Positions 37,926 to 64,000 of a DNA stretch of 64,000 bases are shown piece after piece. Position numbers and translations under genes: made by a program. How positions within the stretch are numbered: position 1 is the stretch's first letter; every line of letters begins with the position of its first letter. Source of the DNA: Candidatus Multivoradales bacterium (GTDB taxonomy: Bacteria > Acidobacteriota > Thermoanaerobaculia > Multivoradales > JAHEKO01); the NCBI GenBank assembly GCA_965223855.1, contig CBDCXM010000009.1:1216001-1280000 (forward strand), given 5' to 3'. The notes beneath the pieces were generated by a model that saw nothing but the letters and a program-made list of their open reading frames with translations, was not told where the DNA came from and did not search any database.

Positions 37926-38885
<960 letters not shown>

Positions 38886-38920
38886 GCCGACGACGACGGA
38901 GCCGGTCAGGCTGGAGCCGC

Positions 38921-39817: not shown

Positions 39818-40299
39818 TCTCCTGGCCCGAGCTGGCGGTGGAGACCCGGGAGCCTCTGCGTCTGATCGAGCCGTTCCCGTGGGGACGGGTCGTCGTGCTG
39901 ACGGTGCTCACCGGGACGGTGCTCTGGCTGGCCGGGAGGGTGGTCCTGCGCTGGCTGAGGGCGCCCCGGACGGGAAAGGTGGAGGTGCCCGTAGCGCCGC
40001 TCGACCCGTTCGAGGAGGCTCTGATCCGTCTCAGGAAGCGCACCCGGGAGAGCCTCGACTATCGCCGCGGCTGCCACGAGCTCGCGCGCCTGGTGCGCGA
40101 GGACTACGCCGCCCGCCGCGGCGGCCAGGTCGAAACCTGGACCGCAGCGGAGTCTGTGAGGATGCATGCCGACGACGCCGGCGCGGTCTTGCTGCAGCAG
40201 ATCGCGGGTACCCGTTTCGGCCGCCGTCCGCCGGTCGCGGCGACGTTCGATGCGCTGTGCGAGCTGGCGCTCGAGACCTGGCAGGCTTTGCGATCGTGA
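39814..40299 (+). CDS. Single-TM accessory protein of the MoxR/Bat operon
   Basis: ATGA overlap with DUF58, one TM helix, and the usual position between DUF58 and BatA. Confidence 0.7.
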   Translation: MISWPELAVETREPLRLIEPFPWGRVVVLTVLTGTVLWLAGRVVLRWLRAPRTGKVEVPVAPLDPFEEALIRLRKRTRESLDYRRGCHELARLVREDYAARRGGQVETWTAAESVRMHADDAGAVLLQQIAGTRFGRRPPVAATFDALCELALETWQALRS

Positions 40300-40309
40300 G
40301 GCGGAAGTC

Positions 40310-41296
40310 GTGATCGAGGGCTTCGGTCTCGAGCGTCCGGAGGCTCTTCTGGTACTGCTCGCCGTGCCGCTGGCGCTCTTCCAGCGGGTAAGGCTCGATC
40401 GCAGAGAGGACGTGCCGATGAGCCGACTGGCGGTCTTCGGCGGCGGGGTCCGGGGGCTGCGACGGCTGCAGAGACTGGCGCTCGTGCTGACGGCAGTGAT
40501 GCTGGTACTGGGTCTCGCCGGGCCGTACCGGTCGGCGGAGGTGGAGCTCTACGACGAGCCGGGGATCGACATCGCCCTCGTCCTCGACGTGTCGCTGAGC
40601 ATGCTGGCGACCGACTTCGAGCCCGACCGCCTGACGGCGTTGCGCCGCATCGCCGACGACCTTCTGCGCCAACGCAGCGCCGACCGCATTGCCCTCGTGA
40701 TCTTCGCCAAGGACACCTTCGTCCAGTCACCTTTGACGAACGACGACTTCATCCTCCGCGAGCTGCTCGAGGCGGTGACCGTGGACACGGTCGATCAGCG
40801 GCTCAGCGGTGGCACCGCGATCGGTGACGCCCTGCTCGTGGCGACCGATCAGTTGGCGGCCGCGAAGATCGAGGGGCGGGACCAGTCGATGCTGCTGCTG
40901 ACCGACGGCGAGAGCAACGAGGGGATCGACCCGCTGCTGGCGGCGCGCCATGTGGGGGCCAACGACATCCGCCTTTCGATCGTCGGCATCGGCGGCCTCG
41001 ATCCGATACCGGTCTTCCACGAGGGGGAGCCGGTCGGCAACGGACTGATCTCGGCGCTCGACGAGGAGGCGCTGCGCGACATCGCCACGGCGGCAGGGGG
41101 GAGCTACTACCGCGCCGCGGATACCCCCGAGCTCGAGGGGATCTTCGACGAGCTCGAGCGATTGCAGGCGCGCCCGCTCGAGACCCGCCGCTTCGAGGCG
41201 CGCGCGCCGCTCGCTCCACTGGCGGCGCTGGCGGCGTTCGCCCTCTTTCTGCTCTATGCCGGCGCGACGCACGCCGTCAGGAGGCCGCTGCGGTGA
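40310..41296 (+). CDS. batA: BatA-like VWA domain protein
   Basis: GTG start. LAGP, GIDIALVLDVSLSM (MIDAS), SPLT.D, GTAIGDAL, LLTDGESN. Confidence 0.88.
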   Translation: MIEGFGLERPEALLVLLAVPLALFQRVRLDRREDVPMSRLAVFGGGVRGLRRLQRLALVLTAVMLVLGLAGPYRSAEVELYDEPGIDIALVLDVSLSMLATDFEPDRLTALRRIADDLLRQRSADRIALVIFAKDTFVQSPLTNDDFILRELLEAVTVDTVDQRLSGGTAIGDALLVATDQLAAAKIEGRDQSMLLLTDGESNEGIDPLLAARHVGANDIRLSIVGIGGLDPIPVFHEGEPVGNGLISALDEEALRDIATAAGGSYYRAADTPELEGIFDELERLQARPLETRRFEARAPLAPLAALAAFALFLLYAGATHAVRRPLR

Positions 41297-44254: not shown

Positions 44255-44977
44255 ATGACCTACCGTCTGACCACCGCCGCGCTGGCGTTCATCCTGTGCT
44301 TCTCGGCTTCGGCCGCGCGTGCCGGCACCGTGACGCTGACCGCCGATCGCGACAACACGCTCTATCAGTCGGACGACGGCAGTCTCAGCAACGGCGCCGG
44401 CGATCACTTCTTCACCGGCGTGACCAACGAGGGTGTGACCCGCCGCGGCCTGGTGCACTTCGATCTGACGTCGATTCCGTCCGGTGCGGTGATCACCAGC
44501 GCGACCCTGACGCTCAACATGTCGATGACGATCGCCGGACCGGTCGATGTGACGCTCCATCGCGTCTCGGCGGATTGGGGCGAAGGCGCTTCGAATGCTC
44601 CCGGCGGTGAGGGAGGTGGCGCGCCGGCGGCGACCGGGGACGCGACCTGGCTCCACACCTTCTTCGACAGCTCGCTGTGGGCGACCGCGGGAGGCGACTT
44701 CGTCGCCGCCGCCAGCGCGACGACCTCGGTCGACGACAACGGCGCCTACGCCTGGGGCTCGACGACCGGGATGATCGCCGACGTGCAGGAGTGGGTCGAC
44801 TCTCCGGCCGACAACTACGGCTGGCTCCTCCTCGGCGGCGAGCAGCTCGAAGGGCAGTCGACCGCCAAGCGTTTCGACAGCCGCGAGGGCGATCAGGAGG
44901 GGACGTCGGGGCCACAGCTCGTCGTCGAGTTCCTGCCTCCCGTGCCGGTCGAGCTGCAGTCGATCACGATCGACTGA
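44255..44977 (+). CDS. Secreted DNRLRE-domain protein with a PVEL-type C-terminus
   Basis: Signal peptide, ADRDNTL...RRGLVHFDL..IP.GAVITSATLTL, NYGWLL, FDSRE...PQLVV, ending PVPVELQSITID. Confidence 0.8.
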   Translation: MTYRLTTAALAFILCFSASAARAGTVTLTADRDNTLYQSDDGSLSNGAGDHFFTGVTNEGVTRRGLVHFDLTSIPSGAVITSATLTLNMSMTIAGPVDVTLHRVSADWGEGASNAPGGEGGGAPAATGDATWLHTFFDSSLWATAGGDFVAAASATTSVDDNGAYAWGSTTGMIADVQEWVDSPADNYGWLLLGGEQLEGQSTAKRFDSREGDQEGTSGPQLVVEFLPPVPVELQSITID

Positions 44978-45183: not shown

Positions 45184-48100
45184 ATGACGTTATTCGTCCC
45201 GTCGCAGCGGGCCGGCGTGCGCCGGTGGCCGCTTGTCGCACTCACTCTGCTGTTCCTCGTGGCGACCGCCTCGCACGCCTTCGTGCAACCGCAGTCGGAC
45301 CGCCACGAGCAGCGCAACTTCGACGCCCGGATCGCCGAGAACGTCGGCCTCGTGGCGCCGGAGAACGCCGACCAGCGGGCCGCCGTCGAGGCGCTTCGGG
45401 CGACTCTGCCCGAGCTCGCCGTGACCTACGAGCCGTCGAGCAGTGCCGTGCGCACGCTCTACAACCAGACCGGCTACCTGACCGAGCCGAGCGAGGCGCT
45501 GCCTCGTGAGATCGCACTTCGCTTCGTGACCGACAACCTCACGCTGCTCGGCCTCACGGCAGGGGACGTGCGCTCGTTCGAGGTCACCGACGAGGTGTTC
45601 ACCCGGGCGACGGGTGCGACCCGTCTCTACCTGCGGCAGACGCATGGGGGGCTGTCGGTCTACAACGCCCAGCTGCAGGTCAACATCAACCGCGACGGGC
45701 GGATCCTGAGCGTCAACAACGCCTTCCTGCCGGGTCTCGCCTCGGCGGCGGGTTTCGCCGCGGACGGGCGAGCCGGCTTCCAGCCGGCCCTCGATGCGGT
45801 GGCGGCCGTCGCCTCGGCCGCCAAGTCGATCGGTGTCGACGTGACGCCGGTCGTGACCGAGAGTGCGAGCGGCGTCGAACGGCTCACCCGGGTCAGCCCG
45901 GACGGTCTCTCCCAGGAGCCGATCGAGGCGCGGCTGATGTGGCTGCCGATCCGCGAGGGAGACGTTCGGCTGGTCTGGAACTTCCAGATCTACACCCTCG
46001 ACAGCCAGCACTGGTACGACTTCACCGTCGATGCGACGAGCGGCCGTGTGTGGACCCGGTTCGACTGGGTCAACTCGGGCGACTACCGGGTCTACGAGCA
46101 GCCGGTGGAGGATCCGGGGCATACGAGCCCGGCCCCGCCTGCCGACGCGCGGACGCTGGCGGTCGATCCCGAGAACGCCACGGCTTCGCCGTCCGGCTGG
46201 TTCTCCGGCGGCATCGTCGACGGCAACAACGTCCACGCCTGCATCGACGCCAGTCCGTCGAACAACGCCTGTGACTTCCAGACGAGCTGCTCCGGGACCA
46301 CCTGCGACTTCCCGATCAACCTCAACAACCAGCCCTCGTCGTTCCAGAACGCGGCGGTGGCGAATCTCTTCTACTGGAACAACCTGATTCACGACATCCA
46401 GTATCAGTACGGGTTCGACGAAGCTGGCGGCAACTTCCAGGAGAACAACTTCGGCAACGGCGGCAACGGGTCCGACTCGGTGAACGCCGACGCCCAGGAC
46501 GGCGGCGGCAACTGCAATGCCAACTTCGCGACGCCGACCGACGGTGGCAACCCGAGGATGCAGATGTATACCTGCACCAACGCCAGCCCGGCGCGGGACG
46601 GTGATCTCGACAACGGGGTGATCGTCCACGAGTACGGGCACGGCATCTCGATCCGCCAGGTCGGTGGCCCGGGCAACTCGAGCTGTCTCAACAACAGCCA
46701 GCAGGCCGGCGAGGGATGGAGCGACTGGTTCGCCCTCGCCTACACCCACGAGCCGGGCGATGCGGGCACGGATTCCCGCGGCATCGGCACCTACCTCTTC
46801 GGTCAGGGCCCCAACGGTCCCGGTATCCGCGATCTGCCCTACTCGACCGACCCGGGTGTCAACAACTGGACCTACGAGTCGATCTCGGGCGCCGGCATTC
46901 CGCACGGCGTCGGTTCCCGTTGGGCACAGGCGATCTGGGAGGTCTACTGGGCGCTCGTCGACCAGTACGGCTTCGACGCCGATCTCTACGACGCCAACGG
47001 CGGCGCCGGCAACCAGCGCGCCATGCTCTACGTCAACGAAGGGCTCAAGAACACGGCCTGCTCGCCGACGTTCGTCGCCAACCGCGACGGCATCATCCAG
47101 GCGGCGACCGACAACTACGGCGGCGCCGACGTCTGCCTCCTGTGGGAGACCTTCGCCGCCTTCGGCCTCGGGACGGACGCCGTCTCCGGCGGGTCGAACT
47201 CCACCAACCCGACGAACGGCTTCTCGATCCCGGCCTCGTGTCAGTGCCAGCCGAACCCGATCGCCGACGCCGGAGCGGATCAGACGATCTGCCAGGGCGA
47301 CTCGGCCACCGTCGGTACGTCCGCGCAGGCCGGCCACAGCTACTTGTGGTCACCCGGCGGCCAGTCGAGCGCTCAGATCACGGTCACGCCGACCGTCGAC
47401 ACGACCTACACCGTGACGGCGACCACCTCGTGTGGCAGTGCGCAGGACTCGGCGACGGTCTTCGTCGATGACGGCACGACGGCCGGCGGTCTGGACGACG
47501 ACTTCGAGAGTGGTGGCGGCTCCTGGAGCTCCACCGGCCTGTGGCATCTGACGAGCAATTCGTCGTGTGCCTCGCCCGGCTATTCGTCGCCGGTCAACGC
47601 CTTCTACTACGGCCAGGATTCGAGTTGCACCTACAACTCCGGTGCGGCCAACTCCGGCTCCCTGACGTCGCCGGTCATCAGTGGGATCAACAACACCTCC
47701 ACGCTGACCTTCGACTACTTCCGCCAGGTCGAGAGCTTCACCGGAGGCTCCTACGACCAGACGACGGTCGATATCGTGACCTCGAGCGGATCGACGACGG
47801 TGTTCGCACTCGATTCGACCGACGCTTCGAGCAGCTCCTGGACATCGAGCGGTGCGATCGATCTTTCCGGTTTCGCCGGTCAGAACATCCAGGTCCGCTT
47901 CACCTTCAACAGCGTCGACAACGTCTCCAACGATTTCGTCGGTTGGCTGATCGACGACGTCGTCGTCACCGGCGACTCGGCCTGCACGCCGAGCAACACG
48001 CCGCCGACGGTCTCGATCGACAGCCCGAGCGGCCCGGTGACGGTCTCCGAGGGTACGTCGGTCAACTTCACCGGTACCGCCTCGGACACCGAGGACGGCG

Positions 48101-49548
48101 ACCTGACCGGGTCGATCGCATGGAGCTCGTCGCTCGACGGTGCGTTCGGTTCGGGGGGCTCGGCCAGTGCGACGCTTTCGGTCGGTAGCCACGTGGTCTC
48201 GGCTTCCGTTACCGATTCCGGCTCGCTCAGCGGGTCCGACTCGGTCGACGTGACGGTCAACGCCAACAACGCGCCGACGGTGAGCATCAACTCGCCGGCC
48301 AACGGTGCGCAGTTCGATCAAGGCCAGACGGTGAGCTTCTCCGGCACCGCGACCGACGTCGAAGACGGCACCCTGACCGGAAGTCTCGCCTGGACGTCGT
48401 CGATCGACGGCTCGATCGGTTCCGGTGGCTCCTTCAGCACCTCGAGCCTGTCGCTCGGCACCCACACGATCACGGCGTCCGTGACGGACTCGAACGGGGC
48501 CAACGGCTCCGATTCGATCTCGATCGGCATCAACGTGATCGGAGGAGGCTGCACCGACTGCATCGACTGGAGTTCCACGACGACGGTCTCCTACTCCAAC
48601 CAGGACGTGAGCGGCGACGTCACCATCGAAGACGGTGGCGACACGATCCTGCTCCAGAACAACACCTGGCGCAGGACGACGCAGACGTTCACGATCACCC
48701 CCAACACGGTGGTCGAGTTCGAGTTCGCCTCCGCGGTTCAGGGTGAGATCCACGGCCTCGGCTTCGACGAGGACGACACGCTCACCAACGACGTGCGGAT
48801 CTTCCAGGTCCACGGCACGCAGAACTGGGGCGGCTCGAACCACGACTTCGACAACTACGCCGGTGGCGGCACGTTCACGACCTACCAGATCCCGGTGGGG
48901 CAGTACTACACCGGCACGATGTTCCTGGTCGTCGTGAACGACAACGACGCCGGTTCCGGCAACGACAGCCGGTTCCGCAACGTGCGGGTCTACGAGGACG
49001 TGCCTCCGGGCGGCTGCGCCGCGGACGTCGATTTCTCGGGCGGTGCCGCCGGCTGGACGAACAGTGGTGCGAGCACCTGCTCGACCGGTTCGTTCGTCGT
49101 CGCCACGCCGACTTCGGTCGTCAACGGTGGCGTCACCACCCAGGTGGGCGGTGACCACACCTCCGGCTCGGGCAACGCCTTCTTCTCGGCGACCAACTCG
49201 AGCGCCGGCGTCAACGACGTCGACGGTGGCAACTGCATCGTCACGTCGCCGGTCTATCCGGTTGCCGACGCCTCCGACGTCAGCCTGTGGTACTTCCACG
49301 GTCAGCGTGACGCCGGTGACGACGCTTCGGGCGACTTCTTCCTGCTCGAGATGTCGACCAACGGCGGTTCGAGCTGGTCGACCCTGGCGTCGAACGGCGA
49401 CAGCACCTCCAACGCGGTCTGGACCGAGGCGACGGCGACCGTCGCTGCCGGATCCAACGTGCAGTTCCGCGTTCAGGTCTCCGACGGCGCGAGTGCCGGG
49501 GATCTGGTCGAGGCGGGTGTCGACGACGTGTCGATCTGCCCGCAGTAG
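45184..49548 (+). CDS. M36 (fungalysin) extracellular metallopeptidase with FTP prodomain and Ig/PKD and jelly-roll accessory domains
   Basis: YQYGFDEAGGNFQ, NANFATP.DG..PRMQMY, HEYGH...GEGWSD zinc motifs, and two NxAPTVSI...GTA.D.EDG Ig-like repeats. Confidence 0.93.
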   Translation: MTLFVPSQRAGVRRWPLVALTLLFLVATASHAFVQPQSDRHEQRNFDARIAENVGLVAPENADQRAAVEALRATLPELAVTYEPSSSAVRTLYNQTGYLTEPSEALPREIALRFVTDNLTLLGLTAGDVRSFEVTDEVFTRATGATRLYLRQTHGGLSVYNAQLQVNINRDGRILSVNNAFLPGLASAAGFAADGRAGFQPALDAVAAVASAAKSIGVDVTPVVTESASGVERLTRVSPDGLSQEPIEARLMWLPIREGDVRLVWNFQIYTLDSQHWYDFTVDATSGRVWTRFDWVNSGDYRVYEQPVEDPGHTSPAPPADARTLAVDPENATASPSGWFSGGIVDGNNVHACIDASPSNNACDFQTSCSGTTCDFPINLNNQPSSFQNAAVANLFYWNNLIHDIQYQYGFDEAGGNFQENNFGNGGNGSDSVNADAQDGGGNCNANFATPTDGGNPRMQMYTCTNASPARDGDLDNGVIVHEYGHGISIRQVGGPGNSSCLNNSQQAGEGWSDWFALAYTHEPGDAGTDSRGIGTYLFGQGPNGPGIRDLPYSTDPGVNNWTYESISGAGIPHGVGSRWAQAIWEVYWALVDQYGFDADLYDANGGAGNQRAMLYVNEGLKNTACSPTFVANRDGIIQAATDNYGGADVCLLWETFAAFGLGTDAVSGGSNSTNPTNGFSIPASCQCQPNPIADAGADQTICQGDSATVGTSAQAGHSYLWSPGGQSSAQITVTPTVDTTYTVTATTSCGSAQDSATVFVDDGTTAGGLDDDFESGGGSWSSTGLWHLTSNSSCASPGYSSPVNAFYYGQDSSCTYNSGAANSGSLTSPVISGINNTSTLTFDYFRQVESFTGGSYDQTTVDIVTSSGSTTVFALDSTDASSSSWTSSGAIDLSGFAGQNIQVRFTFNSVDNVSNDFVGWLIDDVVVTGDSACTPSNTPPTVSIDSPSGPVTVSEGTSVNFTGTASDTEDGDLTGSIAWSSSLDGAFGSGGSASATLSVGSHVVSASVTDSGSLSGSDSVDVTVNANNAPTVSINSPANGAQFDQGQTVSFSGTATDVEDGTLTGSLAWTSSIDGSIGSGGSFSTSSLSLGTHTITASVTDSNGANGSDSISIGINVIGGGCTDCIDWSSTTTVSYSNQDVSGDVTIEDGGDTILLQNNTWRRTTQTFTITPNTVVEFEFASAVQGEIHGLGFDEDDTLTNDVRIFQVHGTQNWGGSNHDFDNYAGGGTFTTYQIPVGQYYTGTMFLVVVNDNDAGSGNDSRFRNVRVYEDVPPGGCAADVDFSGGAAGWTNSGASTCSTGSFVVATPTSVVNGGVTTQVGGDHTSGSGNAFFSATNSSAGVNDVDGGNCIVTSPVYPVADASDVSLWYFHGQRDAGDDASGDFFLLEMSTNGGSSWSTLASNGDSTSNAVWTEATATVAAGSNVQFRVQVSDGASAGDLVEAGVDDVSICPQ

Positions 49549-50679: not shown

Positions 50680-51495
50680 TCAGGTCTCGGCGAGGAGGAC
50701 GATCCTCTCGCGGCTCGACACCACGACGCCGCCGGGAGGCTCGACGGTGACGGCGAAGAGATAGGCGTCGCTCACGCCGACGGGAGTGGTGATCGGGATC
50801 ACCGCTTCCGTACCGTCCTGCGGCATGTCGAAGACGCCGCCATCGACCGGGTAGCGCTCGTCACGGTCGCGGTCGAAGACCCAGAGCTGATACTGCTGCG
50901 AGGCCGGATCGTTGGCTTCGAGATTGCGGATTCGCAGGTACCCCTCACCCCGCTCCTGGTTCCAGACGACGTCTCCCTCGGCGTCAGCGGCCGCGGGGTC
51001 TTCGGTGGCGGTCCAGGCGATCTGGCGCGTTCGGGCGACCTGCAGGAGCTCGACTCGCCTCTCGGCCGCCGTCCGTTCGGTGACGAGTGTCTCGGTGGCG
51101 GGCACCTCGACGGCCAAGGTGTCGCTCGGACCCGTCAGGCGAGGCCACCAGCCGGCGAGTGCCAGGACGAGGGCGGCCGCCGCCGCCCACCAGGCGGTGC
51201 GCGTCGCCGCGGGAGGTGTTGGTTCGGTCGCGAAGTCGAGCACGCGAGCGGTGGATCCCGAGTCGTCGGACTGTGAGCCGGGGGCGGCCGCGATCAGTCG
51301 CTCCCTGAGAGCGTGCGGCAGCGGGTCTTCGGTCCCGGCGTGAGCGAACGCCTGGTGGATCGCCGCGGCGGCCACGTCGAAGGTCCTGTCGTCACCATGC
51401 TCGACGAGCAGGGGCCGCAGTTCCTCGGCCTCGCGGGCGTCGAGGTCGGCGGTCGCCCGTGCCACGAGCAGCTCGTCGAATCGCTGCCGGCTCAC
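50680..51495 (-). CDS. Anti-sigma factor, RskA family
   Basis: GTG start overlaps the sigma stop. One TM helix (WWAAAAALVLALAGWW), QYQLW, FAVTVEPPGG. Confidence 0.88.
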   Translation of the reverse strand: MSRQRFDELLVARATADLDAREAEELRPLLVEHGDDRTFDVAAAAIHQAFAHAGTEDPLPHALRERLIAAAPGSQSDDSGSTARVLDFATEPTPPAATRTAWWAAAAALVLALAGWWPRLTGPSDTLAVEVPATETLVTERTAAERRVELLQVARTRQIAWTATEDPAAADAEGDVVWNQERGEGYLRIRNLEANDPASQQYQLWVFDRDRDERYPVDGGVFDMPQDGTEAVIPITTPVGVSDAYLFAVTVEPPGGVVVSSRERIVLLAET

Positions 51496-52043
51496 GGCGT
51501 CACCGCCTGACTTTCGAGGCTCGTCAATCGCTCCCGTACCTTGTTCAGGCCGCGGAAGATGTGGGATTTGACCGTCCCCAGCGGCAGATCGACGCTGTTC
51601 GCGATCTCGCTGTGAGTCATGCCGTAGTAGATCGACAGCTCGAGAACGCGGCGCTGCTCCGGTCGCAGCTCGTGCAGGATCTCGGCCGCCACCTGCGCCT
51701 CGACCGAAGCCTGCATCCGGACATGCTCGTCGTCGGCGGGCTCGATCTCGACCTCGGGCGGCAGATCGACCCACTGGGGTCGGCGCTGCTCCTTGCGAAG
51801 CCGGTCGATCATCTTGCGGCGGGCGATCATCGTGACGAAGGTCTTCTCGGAGGCCAGCGAGGGGTCGAACTTCGCGGCGTTCTTCCAGACGGCGACGAAC
51901 GCTTCCTGAACCGAGTCTTCGGCCTCTTCGGTCGAGCGATGGAACCGCCTGGCGATCGACCACAGCAGCCCGCCGTAGTGGTCGATGCACTCGCGCACCG
52001 CGTCGGGGTCACCTGCGGCGATCCTGGGGAGGAAGGTTTCCAT
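51492..52043 (-). CDS. ECF sigma factor (SigK-like)
   Basis: AEDSVQEAF..VW, IARRKMIDRLRK, YYGMTHSEIA....PLGTVKSHIFRGL. Start at ATG 52043. Confidence 0.92.
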   Translation of the reverse strand: METFLPRIAAGDPDAVRECIDHYGGLLWSIARRFHRSTEEAEDSVQEAFVAVWKNAAKFDPSLASEKTFVTMIARRKMIDRLRKEQRRPQWVDLPPEVEIEPADDEHVRMQASVEAQVAAEILHELRPEQRRVLELSIYYGMTHSEIANSVDLPLGTVKSHIFRGLNKVRERLTSLESQAVTP

Positions 52044-52136
52044 CGGGACTTGCGAGACGTTATCGCGAAGTCGAACAAGAGAGAAAACGGCGCCGCGGGG
52101 CGAGGAGGACATCCCCACGGCGCCTGGGAAGGCAGG

Positions 52137-53849: not shown

Positions 53850-55652
<1,803 letters not shown>

Positions 55653-55676
55653 CTCGGGCTCCCTTCGTCAGGCAAC

Positions 55677-55701
55677 AACGCGTCACTTGGGATTCGGTTC
55701 C
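55677..55701 (-). promoter_or_regulatory. Putative ECF promoter for the serine hydrolase
   Basis: Minus strand reads GGAAC-N17-GTT, 24 nt upstream of the ATG. Confidence 0.45.
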
Positions 55702-55909
55702 CTCGAGAAGGGCTATCGCACCGAGGCAGGCGCCGCCGACGGCCGGTGCGAAGAGTCCCCGTTGCGGCCGGGGGCCGACGGCCCTCGCGGTACGCCGGAG
55801 TGCTCGTGGCGCCCCGAGGGTGACCCGAAACGCGGTCACTCACGCTGGGGGACGGCCGGTCGGGACACCCGAGGCGAAAGGCGGGAGGGGTGCCGAAGAG
55901 GATCTCCGA

Positions 55910-56479
55910 CTAGGAGCCGCCCTCGAGCCCGCTGAACTCCTCGAACGATCCGCCGAAGAGGAAGAAGCGGATGGAGCCGATCAGCAGCAGGATCGCGGTG
56001 GCGATCGCCAGGGTGACGATCAACCTGCCTGCGATCGGTCGCCGATGCACGGTCCAGGCGATCGCGAGCAACGACGGCACGGCGAGGGGAGCGTTCCGCG
56101 GCCCGCTGAGAAGCAGCGCGGCCACCAGCACGGCGTGCACGATCAGCGTGGTCCGCCGGGTCGCGGCATCGTCGGCGAAGCGCAGTCCGTGCGCGGCGAC
56201 GAAGAGGGCCGGCACGATGAGAGCGACGCCGATCGCGTAGACCACGATCGGGCTGGCCCGCAGAGACCCGTCGAGCGCCAGCAGGGTCACGGCCAGCAGG
56301 TGCCCGAACGCCATCACGGCGATGAACACGCCGGAGAAGGCGCTCATCGCGGCGGTGATGCGCGCCCGCCGATCGAGATCGTCGTTCCTCAGCACGGCCA
56401 GGGCGGCGACGATCCCCAGCAGGGCCGACGGTGCGATCCAGCGGCTTTCGGTGGTGAGGGCTGCGACGAGGTCACTCAT
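55910..56479 (-). CDS. Hypothetical multi-pass membrane protein
   Basis: Five to six hydrophobic segments. Starts 6 nt after the upstream gene's stop. Confidence 0.75.
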   Translation of the reverse strand: MSDLVAALTTESRWIAPSALLGIVAALAVLRNDDLDRRARITAAMSAFSGVFIAVMAFGHLLAVTLLALDGSLRASPIVVYAIGVALIVPALFVAAHGLRFADDAATRRTTLIVHAVLVAALLLSGPRNAPLAVPSLLAIAWTVHRRPIAGRLIVTLAIATAILLLIGSIRFFLFGGSFEEFSGLEGGS

Positions 56480-56485
56480 CGCCGG

Positions 56486-57718
56486 TCAGGGAACGGTCGT
56501 CGACCAGGCGCTCGTGTCGCCGGTTTCGAAGCCGTCGGCGAAGAAGCGGTTGCTGAAGGTCTGCCCGAAGAGATTCGCGTTCCCGTCCTCGGTCAGCAGG
56601 ACGATAGTTGAGGGGTCGTTGCGAGTCGCGACCACGCCTCTGAGGAATGCGTCGAAGAAGGGAATCGGGAAGCTGGAGATGAAACCCGCCGAACTGTCCA
56701 GGATGATGCCCCTGTTTCCCCCCAGCTCGAGAGGATAGGACTCGCTATCGACCACGACGAACTCTCCCGCCGGCACCATCGACGAGTACGCCTGGGAGGT
56801 GAAGGTCTGGATTATCCTGGTGGGGCCGACGTCGCCCGCCGCCGTCGTGACGCGTGCCTTCGCACTCCGGTACCCGAACGCGTAGTGCTGGTTCCAGACA
56901 ACGACGAAGTCGTTCCCCGGAGTAACGTGGGCTTCGGGGCTCCAGGCGGTGTCGTAGTCATAAGGTCCGGGACTCGACATCTGGAAGCTAGGGCCGAGGG
57001 GCTCGCCCGTAGAGGAGAATCGCCGTTGAAAGACCACGGCCGGCGGTAGCCCTTCGGTCGCCTCGTAGTCAGTCCAGGCGACACCGAACCCTCCGTCCGA
57101 GAAGAGCCCTCCCGACACGTCAGCGGAGAAGTGCGGTGGCACGGTCAGGATGTCGACCGCGACCTCGGGCAGTACCGGGTCGCCGGCCGAGTCGAAGGTG
57201 GCCGCCAGGATCTCAGCTTCGGTGTTGTATCCCCAGCTCACCAGGAAGTCGCCATCGGCGGTCCTGCTGACCGACGGGCCGGTCAGCCCGCCGAGCTGGG
57301 TCTGGTTGATCTGAAACTCTCCCCCGAGGGCAGTCCCGTCGACTCCGAACCGCCGGGCGAAGATCGCCGGCTGGCCCCCAGGGTAGTTCCGCCACACCAC
57401 TACGAAGTTGCCGGACGCGTCGGTGGCGACGTCCGGACGCCGTTGCGTGCCTGTGGTGCTCTCGTTGACCCCGAACTCGTCGGTCAAAGGCACTCCGAAG
57501 TCGGAGAAGCGACGAGCACGAACGCCGTGGCCGTCACCGTCGGGCCCGAGGGCCGACCAGACGACGATGAACGTCCCGTCACCTTGAGCCGCCGCTCGTG
57601 GGTCGTCCTGGCCCGATCCGGTCTCCTGGGCGATCTGGAAAGGGTCGCCGGTTGGAACCTGGGCAATCGCGGACGGAGCCAGGAAGATCGCCCACAGAAG
57701 AGCACTGGCCTTACGCAT
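56486..57718 (-). CDS. Secreted beta-repeat protein (EF.VN..T...Q / FVVVW repeats) with C-terminal FADGFE tag
   Basis: Signal peptide from ATG 57718, repeats such as EFGVNESTTGTQ..P.VA.D.SGNFVVVW, ending FFADGFETGDTSAWSTTVP. Confidence 0.82.
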   Translation of the reverse strand: MRKASALLWAIFLAPSAIAQVPTGDPFQIAQETGSGQDDPRAAAQGDGTFIVVWSALGPDGDGHGVRARRFSDFGVPLTDEFGVNESTTGTQRRPDVATDASGNFVVVWRNYPGGQPAIFARRFGVDGTALGGEFQINQTQLGGLTGPSVSRTADGDFLVSWGYNTEAEILAATFDSAGDPVLPEVAVDILTVPPHFSADVSGGLFSDGGFGVAWTDYEATEGLPPAVVFQRRFSSTGEPLGPSFQMSSPGPYDYDTAWSPEAHVTPGNDFVVVWNQHYAFGYRSAKARVTTAAGDVGPTRIIQTFTSQAYSSMVPAGEFVVVDSESYPLELGGNRGIILDSSAGFISSFPIPFFDAFLRGVVATRNDPSTIVLLTEDGNANLFGQTFSNRFFADGFETGDTSAWSTTVP

Positions 57719-57777
57719 GGCTATCGAGGAGACAGTAGCACCAGTCACTTCTCATCCGAGCCGAAGCCGGGCAGGGC

Positions 57778-58152
57778 TCACGACTCGAGGTAGTCGTCGG
57801 GGATCGGCAGCCCCTGCGCGCGGAAGAACGTCAACTGATCGAAGTAGCCGGTCTGCCGCACGATCTTCCCGTCGCGGATCTCGAAGAACCCGCATCCGCG
57901 CAGGCCGATCGGGTCGCGCCAGCGCAGGATCGCCGTGTCGCCGCAGTCGTAGAGCAGCTCCTCGATGCAGACCATCTCGGCCCGCGCGAACTCGACGGCG
58001 AACATCTCGCGAATCTCGGCTCGGCCGTTCAACGGCCGCGAGAACACCACCTGGTCGTTGATCGCGTCCTCGGCGTAGAGCTCCGCCAGGCCGTCGGCGT
58101 CGCCGGCGTTGAAGAGCTCGATCCATCGGCGGACCAGTTCGGTGGCAGTCAT
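57778..58152 (-). CDS. SnoaL-like / NTF2 family protein
   Basis: VRRWIELFNAGDADGLAELYAEDA...LRGCGFF.IRDGKI..Q.GYFD. Confidence 0.88.
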   Translation of the reverse strand: MTATELVRRWIELFNAGDADGLAELYAEDAINDQVVFSRPLNGRAEIREMFAVEFARAEMVCIEELLYDCGDTAILRWRDPIGLRGCGFFEIRDGKIVRQTGYFDQLTFFRAQGLPIPDDYLES

Positions 58153-58166
58153 CACTCTTTCCGATG

Positions 58167-59384
58167 TCAGGGTACCGCGATCGGCCAGTTGCTGGTGTCC
58201 CCGCTTTCGAAGCCGTCGGCGAAGACCTGGTTGATGAACCTCTGTCCCATGAGGTTGCCGCTGTAGTCCTCCCAGAAGACGACGAACTCCGCCGGGTCGT
58301 CGCCGTTGGCGAAGGCACTCAGGAGGTAGCCCTGGAATGAGGGAACCTCGAACTCAGTGATCGGATCCCCCTCGGCGTCGAAGGTCGTACCACCGCGCTT
58401 CGGGTTCGAGTAGTAGCTGGTTCGCGCGACGACGAACTCTCCGGACGGCACCATCGAAAAGGAGGAGTAGTTGCTGACCGGCTCCAAAACCTTGACGGGG
58501 CCGACGATACCTGCGTTGTCGGTCTTGCGTCCCTGCACGTTCCCCCATTCGAGGAACAACTGCTGACCCCACGCCACGAAGAACTCTCCGTTCTCGGCCA
58601 CCCCGATCCGCCCTCCCGCCGAGTCCTGGCCCCAGTCCGTACCCGGGACAGAGAGTTGGAACGGGTCTGCGGTCGGGTCACCCGAGGTATCGAAGACCTG
58701 CTGGAAAACCTCCGTGGCCTCGAAGTCTCCGTGGTCGATGAGGGAAGTCCACACCACCACGAAACTCCGGTCGGGCCGCAACGCGACCGTGGTTCCGAAC
58801 TCGGAAGGGAGGTCGGGATCACTGATGACGAACGGCGGCTCGATCACCTGGCCGTGCGCGTCGAAGGACGCAGCGAAGTCTTCATCGCCATCGACATCGC
58901 TCCACGCCACGAGGAAGTCGCCGTCGGCATGCCTGCTGAGACTCGGCCGCCTGACCGTCGTTTCATCCTGGCTGACCTGCAGGTCACTCGATGTCGGCGA
59001 GCCATCGAAAGCGAAGAGGCGAGCGAAGAGCGTGGTGACGTTTGCCTGCCAAGGCAGCCAGGTGACGACGAAGTTCCCGTCCGAATCGGCCGCGATCCTC
59101 GGCCGGTTCTGGTGCCCAGAGGTGACCTGGTTGATGCCGAACTCGTCCGTGAGGGCTTCACCGTCCCTGGAGAAACGTCGCCCTCGAATCGAGCCGTAGT
59201 CGCCGTCGGCTCCAAGGACCGACCAGACGACCACGAAAGCCCCGTCGGGCTGGGCGGCGGCGACTTGCTCCGACTGCCGGTTCTCGGTGAACTGGGCGAT
59301 CGGGAACGCGTCGCCGACCGGAGTTTGAGCGTCGGTCGCTGTTCCGAGGAGAATCCCGGTGAGAAGGGCAGGAGTCCAGCGCAT
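58167..59384 (-). CDS. Secreted beta-repeat protein, paralogue of 56486-57718, with C-terminal FADGFE tag
   Basis: Collinear similarity with the paralogue (AAAQPDGAFVVVWSVLGADGD vs AAAQGDGTFIVVWSALGPDGD; SMVPSGEFVV vs SMVPAGEFVV). Ends VFADGFESGDTSNWPIAVP. Confidence 0.82.
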   Translation of the reverse strand: MRWTPALLTGILLGTATDAQTPVGDAFPIAQFTENRQSEQVAAAQPDGAFVVVWSVLGADGDYGSIRGRRFSRDGEALTDEFGINQVTSGHQNRPRIAADSDGNFVVTWLPWQANVTTLFARLFAFDGSPTSSDLQVSQDETTVRRPSLSRHADGDFLVAWSDVDGDEDFAASFDAHGQVIEPPFVISDPDLPSEFGTTVALRPDRSFVVVWTSLIDHGDFEATEVFQQVFDTSGDPTADPFQLSVPGTDWGQDSAGGRIGVAENGEFFVAWGQQLFLEWGNVQGRKTDNAGIVGPVKVLEPVSNYSSFSMVPSGEFVVARTSYYSNPKRGGTTFDAEGDPITEFEVPSFQGYLLSAFANGDDPAEFVVFWEDYSGNLMGQRFINQVFADGFESGDTSNWPIAVP

Positions 59385-59499
59385 GACTCACGCAGGAGCG
59401 TAGCACCAGGTCACGAGCCCGACCGATCCACTCCTGCGCCCGCCTGGCTGAGGCGATGGGGCTGTAGCCCGGCTTCGGGGCGATCCGTATCCGGCAGCC

Positions 59500-60987
59500 T
59501 CAGTCGATGCTCTCGTCCCAGGCCGAGACGTCCCCGCTCTCGAAGCCGTCGGCGAAGATCACCCCGTCGAAGGCGACTACGCGGGCGAAGCCGGGGCCGT
59601 CCGACCCCGGCCCTCCCAGCAGCAGCTCGGGGAAGCCGTCACCGTCGAGGTCGCCGGCACCGACTCCGCGGCCGAGAACGTCGAGTCCGTTGTCCGGGTC
59701 GAAGCCGGGGGCGTCGAAGATCGAGTCGGCCGCCGCCGCGGGGATCGCTCCGGCGAGCGGTCCCCGGAACAGGTAGCAGCGCCCGCGGCTCGAAGCGCCG
59801 CCGAACTGGGCACCGACCAGCACGTCGTCGAAGCCGTCGCCGTCGAAATCGCCGGCACCCGCGACGATCCCGAAGTGGTCGCTCGGTGCGCTTGCCGCCT
59901 CGCCCGTGAGGATCGCGTCCGCCTCCCCGGCGCCGTACGTTCCCGGCGCCAGCGGGCCGGAGAAGACGTACGCCTTGCCCGGCCCGTCGCTGAGGAACAC
60001 CTGCCACGCCCCGACGACGAGGTCTTCGCTGCCGTTGCCGTCCACGTCGCCCGCCGTGTCGAGGAAGCTGCCGAAGGAGTCCCGTAGCGCCTCTCCGAGG
60101 ATCGTGACGTCAGCCTGGGCGCTCGACACGGTCCCTTCGACAGGGCTGAAGAAGACGTAAGCGCTGCCTGCGCCGACATCGACGAGCGGGAAGTTCGGTG
60201 CGCCGACGACAATGTCGTCGATGCCGTCGCCGTCGAGGTCCACGGCGGCGACGGCGGAGCCGAGCTCCTCGAGCCCCATCGTCCCGGTGACCGTCGCATC
60301 GGCGTCTTCGGGCCCGAGGTCGCCGGCGAGAGGGCCGAGGAAGACGTGCGCCGAGCCGCTGCCGCTCTGGCTCGCGCCGGCCAGCACGTCGTCGATCCCG
60401 TCGTCGTCGAAGTCGCCGACATCGATCGCCCGCCCGAGCTCGCTGAAGCTCGTCCCGGTGATCGTCGCGTCGGCGTCGGAGACCAGCAGGTCGCCGGCGA
60501 GCGGCCCGTAGAACACCCAAACCTGGCCGTTCAGGGTGCCGCCGACGTCCGGTCCGCGGGCGCCGAGCACGAGATCGCCCACCCCGTCGCCGTTGAGGTC
60601 GCCGCCGTGCGGTGTCGCCACCAGGTCGCCGAACGCGAGGCCGGTCACCGTCACGTCCGCGTCTCCGGCCTGGATGTCGCCGCCGTCGAACGGCCCGAAG
60701 AAGACATAGACCCGCCCGACGCTCGGCTCGTCGGCGCTCACCGTCGGCCCGCTCACCGCCAGATCCGTGACGCCGTCCCCGTTGACGTCGCCCACCACCG
60801 CGAGGCTGTTGCCGAAGTCCCCGCACAGGCTGGGCGCGGCGCACCCCGTCGCCTCGCCGAAGAGGTCGAACCACGGAGCTTGCGCTCCGATAGGGGCAGT
60901 GGAGCCGGCGAGGACTAGAACTGCGAGGGAAACTCGGAGCTTGCTGGGGGTCGTCGGATCGGCCGGTCGCCGAGTCGTGGCACTCAC
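59500..60987 (-). CDS. Integrin-alpha/FG-GAP beta-propeller secreted protein with C-terminal FADGFE tag
   Basis: GTG at 60987 with GAGGAG RBS. About seven GD.NGDG..DL..GA repeats. Ends IFADGFESGDVSAWDESID. Confidence 0.88.
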   Translation of the reverse strand: MSATTRRPADPTTPSKLRVSLAVLVLAGSTAPIGAQAPWFDLFGEATGCAAPSLCGDFGNSLAVVGDVNGDGVTDLAVSGPTVSADEPSVGRVYVFFGPFDGGDIQAGDADVTVTGLAFGDLVATPHGGDLNGDGVGDLVLGARGPDVGGTLNGQVWVFYGPLAGDLLVSDADATITGTSFSELGRAIDVGDFDDDGIDDVLAGASQSGSGSAHVFLGPLAGDLGPEDADATVTGTMGLEELGSAVAAVDLDGDGIDDIVVGAPNFPLVDVGAGSAYVFFSPVEGTVSSAQADVTILGEALRDSFGSFLDTAGDVDGNGSEDLVVGAWQVFLSDGPGKAYVFSGPLAPGTYGAGEADAILTGEAASAPSDHFGIVAGAGDFDGDGFDDVLVGAQFGGASSRGRCYLFRGPLAGAIPAAAADSIFDAPGFDPDNGLDVLGRGVGAGDLDGDGFPELLLGGPGSDGPGFARVVAFDGVIFADGFESGDVSAWDESID

Positions 60988-61069
60988 GGAATCTCCTCGG
61001 TCGGTTCGTCTTCGGGTGAGTTTCGACAAGGAGCCGCAAGGTTCATCCGCCCGGTAGCCGGGGCTGTGA

Positions 61070-61104
61070 TGGTGCTTCGCGGCGGGAGATTCGAACCCCC
61101 TGTC
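61070..61104 (-). other. tRNA/tmRNA-like 3' remnant (T-arm plus ...ACCA), possible att site
   Basis: Minus strand reads GACA-GGGGG-TTCGAAT-CTCCC-GCCGCGAAGC-ACCA. No properly spaced D-arm or anticodon arm upstream. Confidence 0.45.
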
Positions 61105-61163
61105 TCTCGATCCGCGACTTCGTGGTGCTTGACTCTGAAGTCAATCGGTTGCCGGGAAAGCGC

Positions 61164-62201
61164 CTATGGAGCCGGAGCGGGGGGCTTGTTCTGAGCTTGC
61201 TGCGTTGGGAGCAGACCCTCATCCCACAAGAAGTCCTCAAGCCTTCTAGCGAAGACGCGGTGCCCCTCTTTGTTCGGATGAGAGTCCAACGGATTGAGGA
61301 AGTACTCGGAGGGGTCTGTATCGAGGAACTCGAGAGTGAGGTTCACGAACGAGAAGCCCTCCCGAGCGAACGCTCTCTCAAGGAACGGAGATCTCATCGG
61401 GACTGTCGACAAGTAGGCGATCGCGATGGGCACACTTTGCTGCCGGCTCCAAACGCCGATCCTGGACAGGTAGTCCTTCACGCGCTTCTTGTTGTCCCCA
61501 ACCTTCACGAACTTCGCTTTCTCCGTGCGTTCGCCGTCGGTCTTCAAGGCAAGGCCACGTCTGAGCTGGATTCCGCTCAACAGGAACGACGAGAAGAAGG
61601 CGCGTTCGACGGGCCGAACCTCATAGGGTCGCTCGAACCAGATGTCACGCCAGGCGCGGTGATCGTTGTGTGCGCAGAAACCGATAATCACTAGATCGGG
61701 ACTGTAGGGTTGTGCCTTGGCCTTGATCACGCCCCAGTACTGCCGGAGGTTGTAGCCAGCGACCGCGAGGTTGATGACCTCGAAAGAAGCCCCTTCCGGC
61801 GTGGAGTTGAGGTTCTCCTCAAGGACGGAGTGGTACGCATCCTCAATCCGCACACCGGATGGCATCGAGAAGGAGTCGCCCACCAAGGCAATCCGGAACG
61901 TGGAAGGCGGCTTCTCAAGAGAGTATTCTTGGTCCCGCTCCCCTCGCGAGTTGGTGACGAAAGTCACTCGTTTGAACAGAGTCTCGAGGTTCGGCCTGAG
62001 CTCGAAGGCGAGATCATCGTGAGGCGACGGCTGAACGAGGCCGGAGACGCCGAAGCCGTGCAGGCTGTTCATCTTGGAGGGGGAAAGGCTGTCCCAGCCG
62101 AAGAGGTACATGCGGTACGCCTGCTCCAAGGTCAGGAGTGTTACCCCGATGGCGGCAAGCGCGAGTGCGACGTTGGCAAGCCCCTTGCCGACCGTGCCCA
62201 T
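61164..62201 (-). CDS. SGNH/GDSL hydrolase, membrane-anchored
   Basis: N-terminal TM helix, TNSRG.RD, GDSFS (block I), NLAVAG, HND, DSHPN..GH. Confidence 0.88.
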   Translation of the reverse strand: MGTVGKGLANVALALAAIGVTLLTLEQAYRMYLFGWDSLSPSKMNSLHGFGVSGLVQPSPHDDLAFELRPNLETLFKRVTFVTNSRGERDQEYSLEKPPSTFRIALVGDSFSMPSGVRIEDAYHSVLEENLNSTPEGASFEVINLAVAGYNLRQYWGVIKAKAQPYSPDLVIIGFCAHNDHRAWRDIWFERPYEVRPVERAFFSSFLLSGIQLRRGLALKTDGERTEKAKFVKVGDNKKRVKDYLSRIGVWSRQQSVPIAIAYLSTVPMRSPFLERAFAREGFSFVNLTLEFLDTDPSEYFLNPLDSHPNKEGHRVFARRLEDFLWDEGLLPTQQAQNKPPAPAP

Positions 62202-62335: not shown

Positions 62336-64000
62336 ATGAACAAACACAAGCCCACCCTACCCGTCCACGCTCGCCCTTTCGAGTCTCCCTTGTCGAGCCG
62401 AGGTTCCGCCTTGTCGGTGTGGGCTCTGCTTGTCCTGAGTTTCATCGGCATGCCGCTGGTCGCACAAGGTAACCCGATCGCCGTGCATGCTGTGCCGGAC
62501 AAGATCTTCGAGGGTACTGGCGATCTTCAGCTACTGCGCGATCGAGTGGACGCAATCGAGCCCGGCTATCTCAAGATTCCCTATCGCTGGTACTGGACCC
62601 AGAATCTCGACGAGATTCAGGACTTCATCGTCGACAATCCTGGGCGGCCCTTCGTGGCCGGCTTCCTTCACTTCAACAAGGACGAGTGCCACCCTGACAA
62701 TGACCCGGACTGCGTTGATGACTATTTCGATGACCTCCTGCTCGAGGCGCAGAACGCCGCTGAGGACTATGGCTCGTCGATCGAGTACTACGAACTCGGC
62801 AACGAGGTGGACGCCAAGATCAGCCACTTCCCTGGAGGGGTCTCCGAGTACATCGACAAGCTCAACGAGTTCGTGATGGCCGTGAAGACTCTCGGCGGGG
62901 ACTCCGACGCGAAGTTTGCAATCAGCTTCTTCGACGCCTCAAGTCCTACGGCAGAGGACATTCTCGAGGAGTGCGCCAACGACTCTGCGTGCGATGCCAA
63001 CGTCAAGGCCGTGGACATCCACGTGCATCCATCGTGGAACGAAAGCAACAAGGTGCTAACCGAGATTCAGGACATCAAGGACGCGATCGCCGCCAGTGGC
63101 TTCACGGCAACGGCGGACATTCTCGTTGGAGAGATCAGTACCTGGTTTGGTATCGCCGACACCACCCCGACAGGCGAGTATCAAACGGAAGAGGAGCAGG
63201 CCGTCTTCTACGCAGAGGCACTGTTGCTCGCAGTGAGCAAGAACAGGCTCGTAATGGGCGCGTCCGGTCCGATGAGAGATCGCGGGCTTGGCCTCAACAA
63301 TCAGAATCCTCCCTACCCCCCTGCGGACAGGTTCGCAATAGGAGCTCACTTCTTCAGGCCGTCCATGACCTACTGTGATCCTCAAGGTGTCCCGCCGGCG
63401 GACTGGTGCTGTCATCCGGATGATTTGACCTGCGATGGCGAGTTGTCTGGGCCGAAGCTGTCTGCCTATTCACTTGAGCTAGTGACCAATGCTCTCGAGG
63501 GTCTGGCGGCCGGGAAAGTGGTCAAAGTGAACTCGGGCGTGTCCGGCGTCGTCCGCATCAACATCAAGCATCCCATCTTCGCGTACGCGCTCTGGCTGGA
63601 CGGGACCGGCGATATCGGCTCCTCGTCCCAGTCGTACACCTTGGATGTCGGAACGAGCGCCACGAGTGCGCTTGTTATCAAGGGGCCTCCGATCAACGTG
63701 CTCTACGACGACCGAAAGTGGCCGATTCCCGATATCGAGCTTCGACACATGTTCGAGCACTCGTACGAGGACCTGACCGGATCGGGAGGGATGCTCACGC
63801 TGAATCTCGGAACTCACGAGCCCACATTTGTCTTCACCGAGTACGACTCGATGGTCGCCTACCTTGAGATGGACGACGTGACCGACCCTCTCGTGGACAC
63901 CACAAACTACGACAACGACGGTACGAACTTCGGCGTCGTCTACACGTCGGGGGGCAAGATCGGCGGGGCGCTTGAGTTCTCGAGCGCCTCGACCTACGCG
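62336..64000 (+). CDS. Secreted clan GH-A (GH39/GH5-like) TIM barrel followed by a LamG-like domain, 3'-partial
   Basis: Not in the ORF track because there is no stop. Manual translation from ATG 62336 gives a signal peptide, YYELGNE (acid/base), DIHVH, ILVGEIS (nucleophile), then MVAYLEMDD...GKIGGALEF at the start of a LamG-like domain. Confidence 0.8.
   Translation, partial: MNKHKPTLPVHARPFESPLSSRGSALSVWALLVLSFIGMPLVAQGNPIAVHAVPDKIFEGTGDLQLLRDRVDAIEPGYLKIPYRWYWTQNLDEIQDFIVDNPGRPFVAGFLHFNKDECHPDNDPDCVDDYFDDLLLEAQNAAEDYGSSIEYYELGNEVDAKISHFPGGVSEYIDKLNEFVMAVKTLGGDSDAKFAISFFDASSPTAEDILEECANDSACDANVKAVDIHVHPSWNESNKVLTEIQDIKDAIAASGFTATADILVGEISTWFGIADTTPTGEYQTEEEQAVFYAEALLLAVSKNRLVMGASGPMRDRGLGLNNQNPPYPPADRFAIGAHFFRPSMTYCDPQGVPPADWCCHPDDLTCDGELSGPKLSAYSLELVTNALEGLAAGKVVKVNSGVSGVVRINIKHPIFAYALWLDGTGDIGSSSQSYTLDVGTSATSALVIKGPPINVLYDDRKWPIPDIELRHMFEHSYEDLTGSGGMLTLNLGTHEPTFVFTEYDSMVAYLEMDDVTDPLVDTTNYDNDGTNFGVVYTSGGKIGGALEFSSASTYA

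Follow-up and report, generated by a model that had tools for sequence, protein, structure and literature searches.

What is the role of the short acidic sequence in which four proteins end within a 64,000-nucleotide stretch of a Candidatus Multivoradales genome (GenBank assembly GCA_965223855.1, contig CBDCXM010000009.1, positions 1,216,001 to 1,280,000)? This stretch, the 64-kb window, is 68% G+C and chromosomal in appearance. The sequence in question, referred to here as the tag, is 18–19 residues long and has the consensus [ILV]-F-x-D-G-F-E-S-G-D-T-S-A-W-S-x-T-V-P at the carboxy end of the protein. The tag is terminal, modular, optional in orthologues, present in multiple copies, found in one lineage in our sample and replaced by known anchors in homologues. 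The reading that we rank first is that it is a lineage-specific and modular address tag, free of any transmembrane (TM) helix, which one envelope partner would read in trans as a sorting or attachment signal. We put the probability of this at roughly 45%. Non-covalent docking is ranked second.

The four proteins are all encoded on the minus strand. P1 (5779–7161) is a predicted exported protein of 460 amino acids, its homologues make up a conserved, uncharacterised family. Its tag, LFEDGFESGDTTAWSTTVP, lies at 5782–5838 and is followed by the stop codon (5779–5781). P2 (56486–57748) is an open reading frame (ORF) of 420 amino acids with a probable ATG start at 57718, its tag FFADGFETGDTSAWSTTVP is found at 56489–56545 and the stop codon at 56486–56488. 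P3 (58167–59384) is a 405-residue paralogue of P2, the two proteins share 40% identity over 421 amino acids. The tag of P3, VFADGFESGDTSNWPIAVP, is at 58170–58226 with the stop codon at 58167–58169. P4 (59500–60987) is an FG-GAP repeat protein of 495 amino acids counted from a GTG at 60987, this start is inferred from the homologue P0001 and a codon scan, the longest ORF being 59500–61029. Its tag IFADGFESGDVSAWDESID (59503–59559, stop codon 59500–59502) deviates from the consensus after the tryptophan. Each protein has an N-terminal hydrophobic stretch with an A-x-A end before Q, judged by eye and by a crude rule. In P1 this signal-peptide-like region comprises residues 1–19 (7105–7161, ending APAGA before QW), in P2 it is MRKASALLWAIFLAPSAIA before QV (57662–57718), in P3 residues 1–19 (59328–59384, ending GTATDA before QT) and in P4 a long region of 37 residues (60877–60987, ending STAPIGAQA before PW). 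These cleavage sites were inferred by eye.

An earlier note on this DNA had reported that four proteins share a C-terminal motif in the same register. All four ORFs are confirmed, the tag coordinates given then include the stop codon. Exactly four ORFs of the window finish in [ILVF]F.DGFE.GD...W followed by five residues and a stop codon. The core DGFE.GD occurs four times in a six-frame scan of the window, each time with 16 residues from its D to the stop codon. The back-translated DNA pattern also has four matches in the window, against 0.00 expected (100 dinucleotide shuffles gave 0 matches). A hidden Markov model (HMM) trained on 61 tags from other genomes only scores the tails of P1, P2, P3 and P4 at 41.3, 36.8, 30.9 and 31.1 bits, in P4 over HMM positions 2–15 only. 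The next-best ORF of the window reaches 5.1 bits. An artefact of gene calling or a frameshift is ruled out, as length, end residue and stop codon stay consistent across 100 loci. The four tags are highly alike at third codon positions, this is expected at 88% G+C in these positions (GC3) and is no evidence of recent copying.

Is the tag peculiar to this genome? A species scan, with one genome per species and the pattern F.DGFE.G[DN]...W, listed 131 distinct matches, 80 loci of them with 2-kb flanks, and the scan counts given here refer to the matches listed. The motif lies 13–27 residues before the stop codon in 100 of the 131, a range into which random sites of these ORFs would fall 6% of the time. 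It lies exactly 18 residues before the stop codon in 61, and proline is the last residue in 51 of these. By taxon labels hand-coded from record titles, the motif is C-terminal in 86 of 93 matches from Acidobacteriota (mostly Thermoanaerobaculia and Holophagae), in 6/6 from metagenome-assembled genomes labelled ‘Deltaproteobacteria’, in 6/7 unclassified matches, in 1/1 from Pirellulaceae and in 1/2 from Verrucomicrobiota. It is C-terminal in 0/13 from Chloroflexota, 0/4 from Actinomycetota, 0/3 from Archaea and 0/2 from Armatimonadota (0/22 in total). The earlier note mentions similar endings in some acidobacteria and gammaproteobacteria, the former are borne out and no gammaproteobacterial sequence is among the species-scan matches listed. 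Genomes often hold several tags. In addition to the four in this window, at least 22 other assemblies have two or more, up to six in one.

A profile of 65 tails (alignment A1) searched against 1.84 billion representative proteins finds 8,896 at E≤0.001, 77 of them at E≤1e-10, and the 8,896 clusters include copies embedded in domains. We examined 149 of the best 150 representatives without regard to the position of the motif. It is at the C-terminal end in 58 of the 72 that contain a single motif, in a list ranked by summed score, which favours multi-copy proteins.

The earlier note knew of no characterised system for such tails, and this view stands within the sources covered. No model in Pfam (2025 copy) or NCBIfam 20.0 covers the tag at E≤1. 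Searches of open-access full texts and bioRxiv found nothing relevant on the motif or on sorting signals of Acidobacteria and Thermoanaerobaculia. Compared by sequence with the PDB, the tag gives a chance-level WD40 hairpin only, and a tblastn search of plasmids with a 30-residue tail gave no match.

What kinds of protein carry the tag? Between P1, the P2/P3 pair and P4, the sole significant local similarity is the tail of 18–22 residues. P4 matches Pfam FG-GAP (1.9e-44) in seven stretches, and P2 and P3 consist of seven repeats of about 55 residues of an FVVVW type. P1 and P2/P3 have no relative in Pfam, NCBIfam or the PDB, against which family profiles were also searched. Of the three unrelated folds proposed previously, the FG-GAP and repeat assignments hold, and the description of P1 as jelly-roll-like has weak leads only; a look-up of the P1 homologue P0368 gave leads below 0.9 only (3keto-disac_hyd, LamG). 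When the 160 residues upstream of each of 59 tags are compared by BLAST, 42 unlinked groups result, the largest with seven members, which bears out the earlier description of the tag as modular. In 55 tagged ORFs of at least 150 amino acids, Pfam identifies FG-GAP, S8 subtilase, M28, M12B, C25, M23, GH114 and BNR, as well as beta-helix, cadherin-like, Calx-beta, PKD, DUF11, amidohydrolase, InhA-like MAM and glucose/sorbosone dehydrogenase domains, among others.

These cargoes also resemble exported proteins. A start codon could be assigned for 98 of the 100 C-terminal matches listed. A signal-peptide-like N-terminus is present in 25 of 30 tagged ORFs with a complete N-terminus among these matches. 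The same crude rule passes 82 of 90 full-length tagged proteins and 20 of 38 untagged genes of the window. The tail is a terminal element, modular and restricted by lineage, of proteins whose N-termini resemble signal peptides.

A tail attached to so many cargoes could act on the cargo itself. It would then fold back, for example over an exposed edge strand, and no partner in trans would be involved. Proline and glycine are as frequent in the 15 residues before the tag as in the protein body, so there is usually no flexible linker between the last strand of the cargo and the tag. The Pfam InhA-like MAM model (PF20773) also runs through the tag in two loci, L020:3-2054 (+) and L071:1986-4037 (-), at profile positions of about 165–182 of 191. 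Such a cis-acting cap is nevertheless very improbable, since one invariant motif must suit dozens of different surfaces in 42 unrelated groups of adjoining domains, and 82 of the 120 listed homologues of P1 do without the tag. The PF20773 model may have absorbed a tag-like stretch. The C-terminal 125 amino acids of P1 resemble the MAM and tag region of L020 (27.7% identity, E 2e-5), and the tail region of L020 has a weak match to Reelin only in the PDB.

If the tag is an address, what do relatives carry that lack it? The P1 family is represented by 120 listed homologues at 53–69% identity. The 82 just mentioned have no tag and extend no more than 10 residues past the last core strand. Nine of the 120 are tagged directly after this strand, all five of them with a named source are labelled Acidobacteriota. 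Another short tail, ..[YF][LV]P[LIV][IVL].., ends 13–15 of the 120, dockerins are found in two and Calx-beta domains in three. In the P3 family, 76 of 120 listed members finish in the tag. Nine have a domain of about 209 residues, opened by the motif, at the same junction, and six have the motif 28–60 residues from the end. Three finish in ..PVEL..F..E, two by rule and two more by eye end in a hydrophobic helix with a basic tail, seven have dockerin-like or other end modules and 17 have other endings.

The tag is also found directly after domains named for their exchangeable anchors. Of the 55 cargoes, 46 were compared with NCBIfam, and 7 of these match choice-of-anchor families above the cut-off (Q in five, B in one and J in one), these domains end 3–9 residues before the tag. 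One further choice-of-anchor J match is below the cut-off. According to excerpts of a preprint (bioRxiv 10.1101/2023.03.06.531300), ‘choice-of-anchor’ denotes surface proteins that are anchored alternatively via LPXTG, PEP-CTERM or type IX signals. Judged from sequence, the tag takes the position where known anchors stand.

The other two short tails merit description. The ..[YF][LV]P[LIV][IVL].. tail stands 1–4 residues before the stop codon and takes the place of the tag on P1 orthologues (P0306, P0311, P0316, P0317, P0325, P0337, P0338, P0341, P0343, P0346, P0347, P0389 and P0393; by eye also P0342 and P0349). The only bearer with a named source, P0342, is labelled Caldilineaceae (Chloroflexota). 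The ..PVEL..F..E tail is found on the P3 homologues P0035, P0076 and P0099, and also in the window itself, where a protein of 240 amino acids with a signal-peptide-like start and a DNRLRE domain (NF033679, 1e-18; 44255–44977, plus strand) finishes in PPVPVELQSITID. In this genome it may represent a second short tail at the C-terminus that lacks a TM helix. The P1 family is unusually conserved and its labels include Acidobacteriota, Chloroflexota, Actinomycetota, Gemmatimonadota and a Granulosicoccus. The residues H50, D67, H68, C72, H83, D97, C103 and H106 are invariant in its alignment (A4), and the family may be an unknown exported metalloenzyme.

How does the tag compare with known C-terminal signals? 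Excerpts of a preprint by Haft (bioRxiv 10.1101/2023.06.07.544157) give eight attributes of small C-terminal sorting signals, and six of the eight are seen in the tag. It is near the C-terminus (4/4 in the window, 100/131 matches listed), it occurs several times per genome (four in the window, at least 22 other assemblies with two or more) and it has invariant signature residues. Its bearers mostly have signal peptides (82/90 and 25/30, by the crude rule that passes 20/38 untagged genes), pairs of them are alike in the signal only (42 unlinked groups among 59 proteins), and homologues in the P1 and P3 families lack the signal or have another. The two attributes that the tag lacks are a membrane-spanning hydrophobic segment and a terminal basic cluster.

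This lack separates the tag from the tripartite signals LPXTG, PEP-CTERM, GlyGly-CTERM and MYXO-CTERM. The tail had been described as acidic and free of a TM helix, and both properties are confirmed. Within the last 40 residues of the four window proteins the maximum 15-residue hydropathy is 0.4–1.4, compared with 2.4–3.0 in membrane proteins of the window. The mean net charge of the tag is -2.9, lysine is present in 4 of 99 tags, arginine makes up 1.3% of residues, and lysine and cysteine are almost never found. With neither a hydrophobic helix nor an arginine cluster, an intramembrane sorting enzyme is unlikely for the tag. None of the four proteins matches the PEP-CTERM model PF07589, which detected the positive control L055 at 1.7e-05 in the same library.

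The nearest working analogue is the C-terminal domain (CTD) of type IX secretion. Neither it nor the tag has a TM helix, and the CTD is built of beta strands, as the tag probably is. Each closes the C-terminus of hydrolases and adhesins that are exported through Sec, a route predicted for the tagged cargoes. Both are one signal on many cargoes and share a repertoire of S8, C25 and M36-type domains, cadherin and PKD, and one tagged cargo (L047) is itself PorU-like. In the excerpts of PMC11969387 the type IX CTD is three- to seven-stranded with 43 to more than 70 amino acids, its short form comprises 43–55 residues and is predicted to be a single three-stranded sheet. The last 22 or so residues, two strands, are reported to be sufficient for one cargo, Hbp35, in excerpts of PMC11969387 and PMC4804311. 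By contrast, the tag is 18–19 residues long, acidic and without the conserved basic residue of CTD motif E, and it occurs in Acidobacteriota, not Bacteroidota, with N-terminal and tandem copies as well. Membership of the type IX CTD families was rejected, as no CTD model in Pfam or NCBIfam matches the four proteins at E≤1, and motifs, charge and phylum differ. No type IX genes are present among the 42 window genes scanned.

Dockerins are small, acidic, terminal modules of cellulosome-type systems. They are sometimes found in the slot of the tag in P1 and P3 homologues, and the tag is tandemly duplicated in some proteins. No Pfam dockerin model matches the four window proteins, which carry a single unit of 18–19 residues, and we know of no cohesin-like partner for the tag. 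The comparison nonetheless introduces the explanation ranked second, that the tag is a non-covalent docking module similar to a dockerin or SLH repeat, which would tether proteins, once exported, to a scaffold protein or a glycan of the envelope, with calcium perhaps bridging its three acidic residues. Such a module should be usable at either end of a protein. In P0010, P0240 and L064 a stand-alone copy directly follows the signal peptide and keeps the W-S-x-T-V-P/G end. At least 12 proteins finish in two tags about 21 residues apart (for example P0144, P0154, P0165, P0176, P0208 and P0216), and P0237 looks like a signal peptide and two tags with nothing else. In P0137, P0142 and P0247 the motif is followed by a domain of about 70 residues and then by a terminal tag. 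Dockerin-like modules in the same slot, the negative charge, the conserved aromatic residues (F, F and W) and the greater likeness of tags within a genome than between genomes, described below, are also favourable to docking. The N-terminal copies and tandem pairs mean that the tag is not strictly a C-terminal device. Set against docking, the distance to the stop codon is strikingly fixed, exactly 18 residues in 61 of the 131 matches listed and usually with proline last, and a binding module needs neither. The linker is lacking, there is no scaffold candidate among the window neighbours or in the 2-kb flanks, and N-terminal copies are rare, with three seen. We regard docking as possible and on balance doubtful.

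Where does the tag come from? Internal copies of the motif open a domain of about 210 residues, which we name class B. This domain ends in G-T-x-Y-F-D-x-F-x-S-x-R...I-G-P, and often forms tandem arrays. In Chloroflexota, Actinomycetota, Armatimonadota and archaea it stands internally or at the N-terminus. A comparison of the tag profile with a five-sequence class B profile by hhalign gave 97.7% and E 2e-12, with tag columns 7–29 aligned to class B columns 2–24. The motif is not an orphan. A class B HMM also matches the four window tails at its own positions 3–23. The class B body is absent from all reading frames of the window, the tag stops after 18 amino acids and no body of about 190 amino acids follows.

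Class B has no significant match in Pfam, NCBIfam or the PDB. Its weak matches lean towards jelly rolls (Polysacc_lyase, CBM_4_9, 3keto-disac_hyd, Laminin_G_3 and NTTRR-F1). In L055 and L059 the alignment to CBM_4_9 begins at the motif, from profile positions 1–3 onward, and both CBM22 modules of PDB 4XUP open with a similar stretch, a weak match at E 0.18. From these weak matches we infer that class B is probably a jelly roll. Mean-field couplings computed for 82 class B domains (Meff 80) mostly reflected terminal-gap artefacts and were set aside. The motif stands in the same register in the tag, in class B and in the CBM_4_9/CBM22 and LamG-type jelly rolls. The tag differs from class B in lacking the domain body, in having T-V-P and then the stop codon, and in a polar threonine at position +9 in place of leucine or phenylalanine. 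At this position stand-alone copies have threonine in 61 of 100 listed loci and 65 of 73 representatives, and internal copies have leucine or phenylalanine in 22 of 31 and 75 of 105, respectively. The new result here, from profile comparison, is that the tag matches the first 23 or so columns of a domain that other phyla carry internally. The tag is probably a single copy, standing alone, of the strands with which a widespread domain opens, and this domain is itself probably a jelly roll.

Such a descent also allows for a tag without function, left behind when a C-terminal jelly-roll domain was lost. This would agree with the alignment to the first 23 or so columns of the domain of about 210 amino acids and with the presence of the whole domain at the same junction in nine P3 homologues. 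The tag has seven invariant positions across unrelated cargoes, its own signature in Thr at +9 and the T-V-P end, a fixed length and several copies per genome, and decay would not preserve such features. A vestige is the least probable of the explanations considered.

Do the tags of one genome share a partner? After removal of 6 within-genome pairs with BLAST-linked cargoes, 58 pairs were left and compared with all pairs by 2000 permutations. The identity of the variable core is 0.541 within genomes and 0.434 over all pairs, that of the tail is 0.381 and 0.233, and no permutation (0/2000) reaches either value. Tags agree in both length and last residue in 0.483 of within-genome pairs and 0.273 of all pairs, 10 of 2000 permutations reach this. 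Higher likeness within genomes is what one shared partner predicts through co-evolution. The tags could instead be partners of each other. Tags of different proteins would then pair sheet to sheet and assemble exported enzymes, as might be suggested by the tandem double tags, by a hydrophobic face (F, F, W and V) with no domain to bury it and by the adjoining of tagged genes, seen for P2, P3 and P4 and in several other loci. Adjoining tagged genes are often simply paralogues, and we consider the chance of self-association to be slight.

How might a partner in trans act on the tag? An N-terminal signal peptide would first take the cargo through Sec. The acidic, aromatic-studded tail would then be read in the periplasm or outer membrane by one shared envelope partner. 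The tail is probably a two-stranded hairpin. It resembles the first strands of a jelly roll of the carbohydrate-binding or LamG type, from which it probably derives, and the partner would most plausibly recognise it through pairing of beta strands. In a manner similar to the type IX CTD, the partner would finally route the cargo across the outer membrane or retain it at the cell surface.

A number of points weigh against this trans-read signal. The species-scan counts refer to the matches listed, and their taxon labels were assigned by hand. The invariance of F, D, G, F, E, G and W in alignment A1 was imposed by the search pattern; as an independent check, the same residues recur with few variants in the tags of P3 and P1 homologues reached via the cargo. 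The hydrophobic segment and basic cluster of small sorting signals are missing, and so, usually, is a flexible linker. N-terminal and tandem copies are unusual for a processed C-terminal signal and fit a binding module better. Copying of tags within a genome could equally give the likeness within genomes. Within 2 kb of tagged genes there is no recurrent partner gene, and the largest cross-locus group among 167 candidate neighbour ORFs has two members. For the neighbours in the window (a membrane protein, SnoaL and others), the 2-kb flanks of other tagged genes gave no homologue apart from one weak match of an ECF sigma factor gene, described below. The suggestion of a secretion or attachment signal with a receptor is upheld as far as a modular, lineage-restricted tag in the slot of anchors is concerned, and no receptor or machinery was found in these neighbourhoods. 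The available data cannot separate an export signal from a docking module, we place the signal read in trans first and docking second.

A bolder form of the trans-read signal can be drawn, which we think unlikely. In this form Thermoanaerobaculia-type Acidobacteriota would possess an undiscovered envelope system that reads the 18-residue jelly-roll hairpin. The receptor would be an incomplete jelly roll, completed by the tag through donor-strand complementation, and a tagged PorU-like C25 peptidase (L047) may process the cargo. This peptidase is encoded at L047:3-2054 (+) in a Candidatus Multivoradales genome and its downstream gene is alaS. It matches Pfam C25 at 7.9e-66, and its score against the PorU model of the type IX sortase is 139.8 bits, below the cut-off of 420.

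The genes around the four tagged proteins may be described briefly. P3, a SnoaL-like gene, P2 and a gene for a membrane protein of 189 amino acids follow in this order with gaps of 11, 29 and 6 bases, and 115 bases separate P3 from P4, which lies upstream. The stretch 55600–61400 shows no promoter-like or terminator-like sites. The sole match of a window gene in the flanks of other tagged genes is an ECF sigma factor gene (51492–52118), which has a weak match of 24% identity in L015. An operon on the plus strand (37926–43203) encodes a MoxR-type AAA ATPase, a DUF58 protein and two VWA proteins and is Bat-like. The earlier note had named such genes as candidate partners, no link to the tag is present in the data seen.

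Three other ORFs of the window deserve mention. An M36 (fungalysin-type) peptidase of 1454 amino acids (45184–49548, plus strand) has neither the tag nor a recognised sorting tail. Its best NCBIfam matches are M36 families that depend on type IX secretion (T9SS), rhombosortase or myxosortase, all of them below the cut-off. A protein of 1570 amino acids (7356–12068, plus strand) has an N-terminal bacterial SH3 domain, a long middle region rich in Glu, Ala and Arg and a Cds6-type NTF2-like domain at the C-terminus. An ORF that is open at the end of the window (62336–64000, plus strand) has a signal-peptide-like start, 62% G+C compared with 68% for the window, and no Pfam family.

C-terminal address tags are the main handle for predicting bacterial surface display, and LPXTG, PEP-CTERM and the type IX CTD each led to a dedicated sorting machine. 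The tag described here is borne, in the sample seen, by hydrolases and adhesin-like proteins from a large branch of the Acidobacteriota that is mostly uncultured. A curated model of the tag would improve secretome annotation, and the tag profile provides a query for phylogenetic profiling towards the partner. An autonomous tag of 18 residues could also serve engineering. A sorting or docking signal derived from the first strands of a jelly roll, a descent that we regard as probable, would have an unusual origin.

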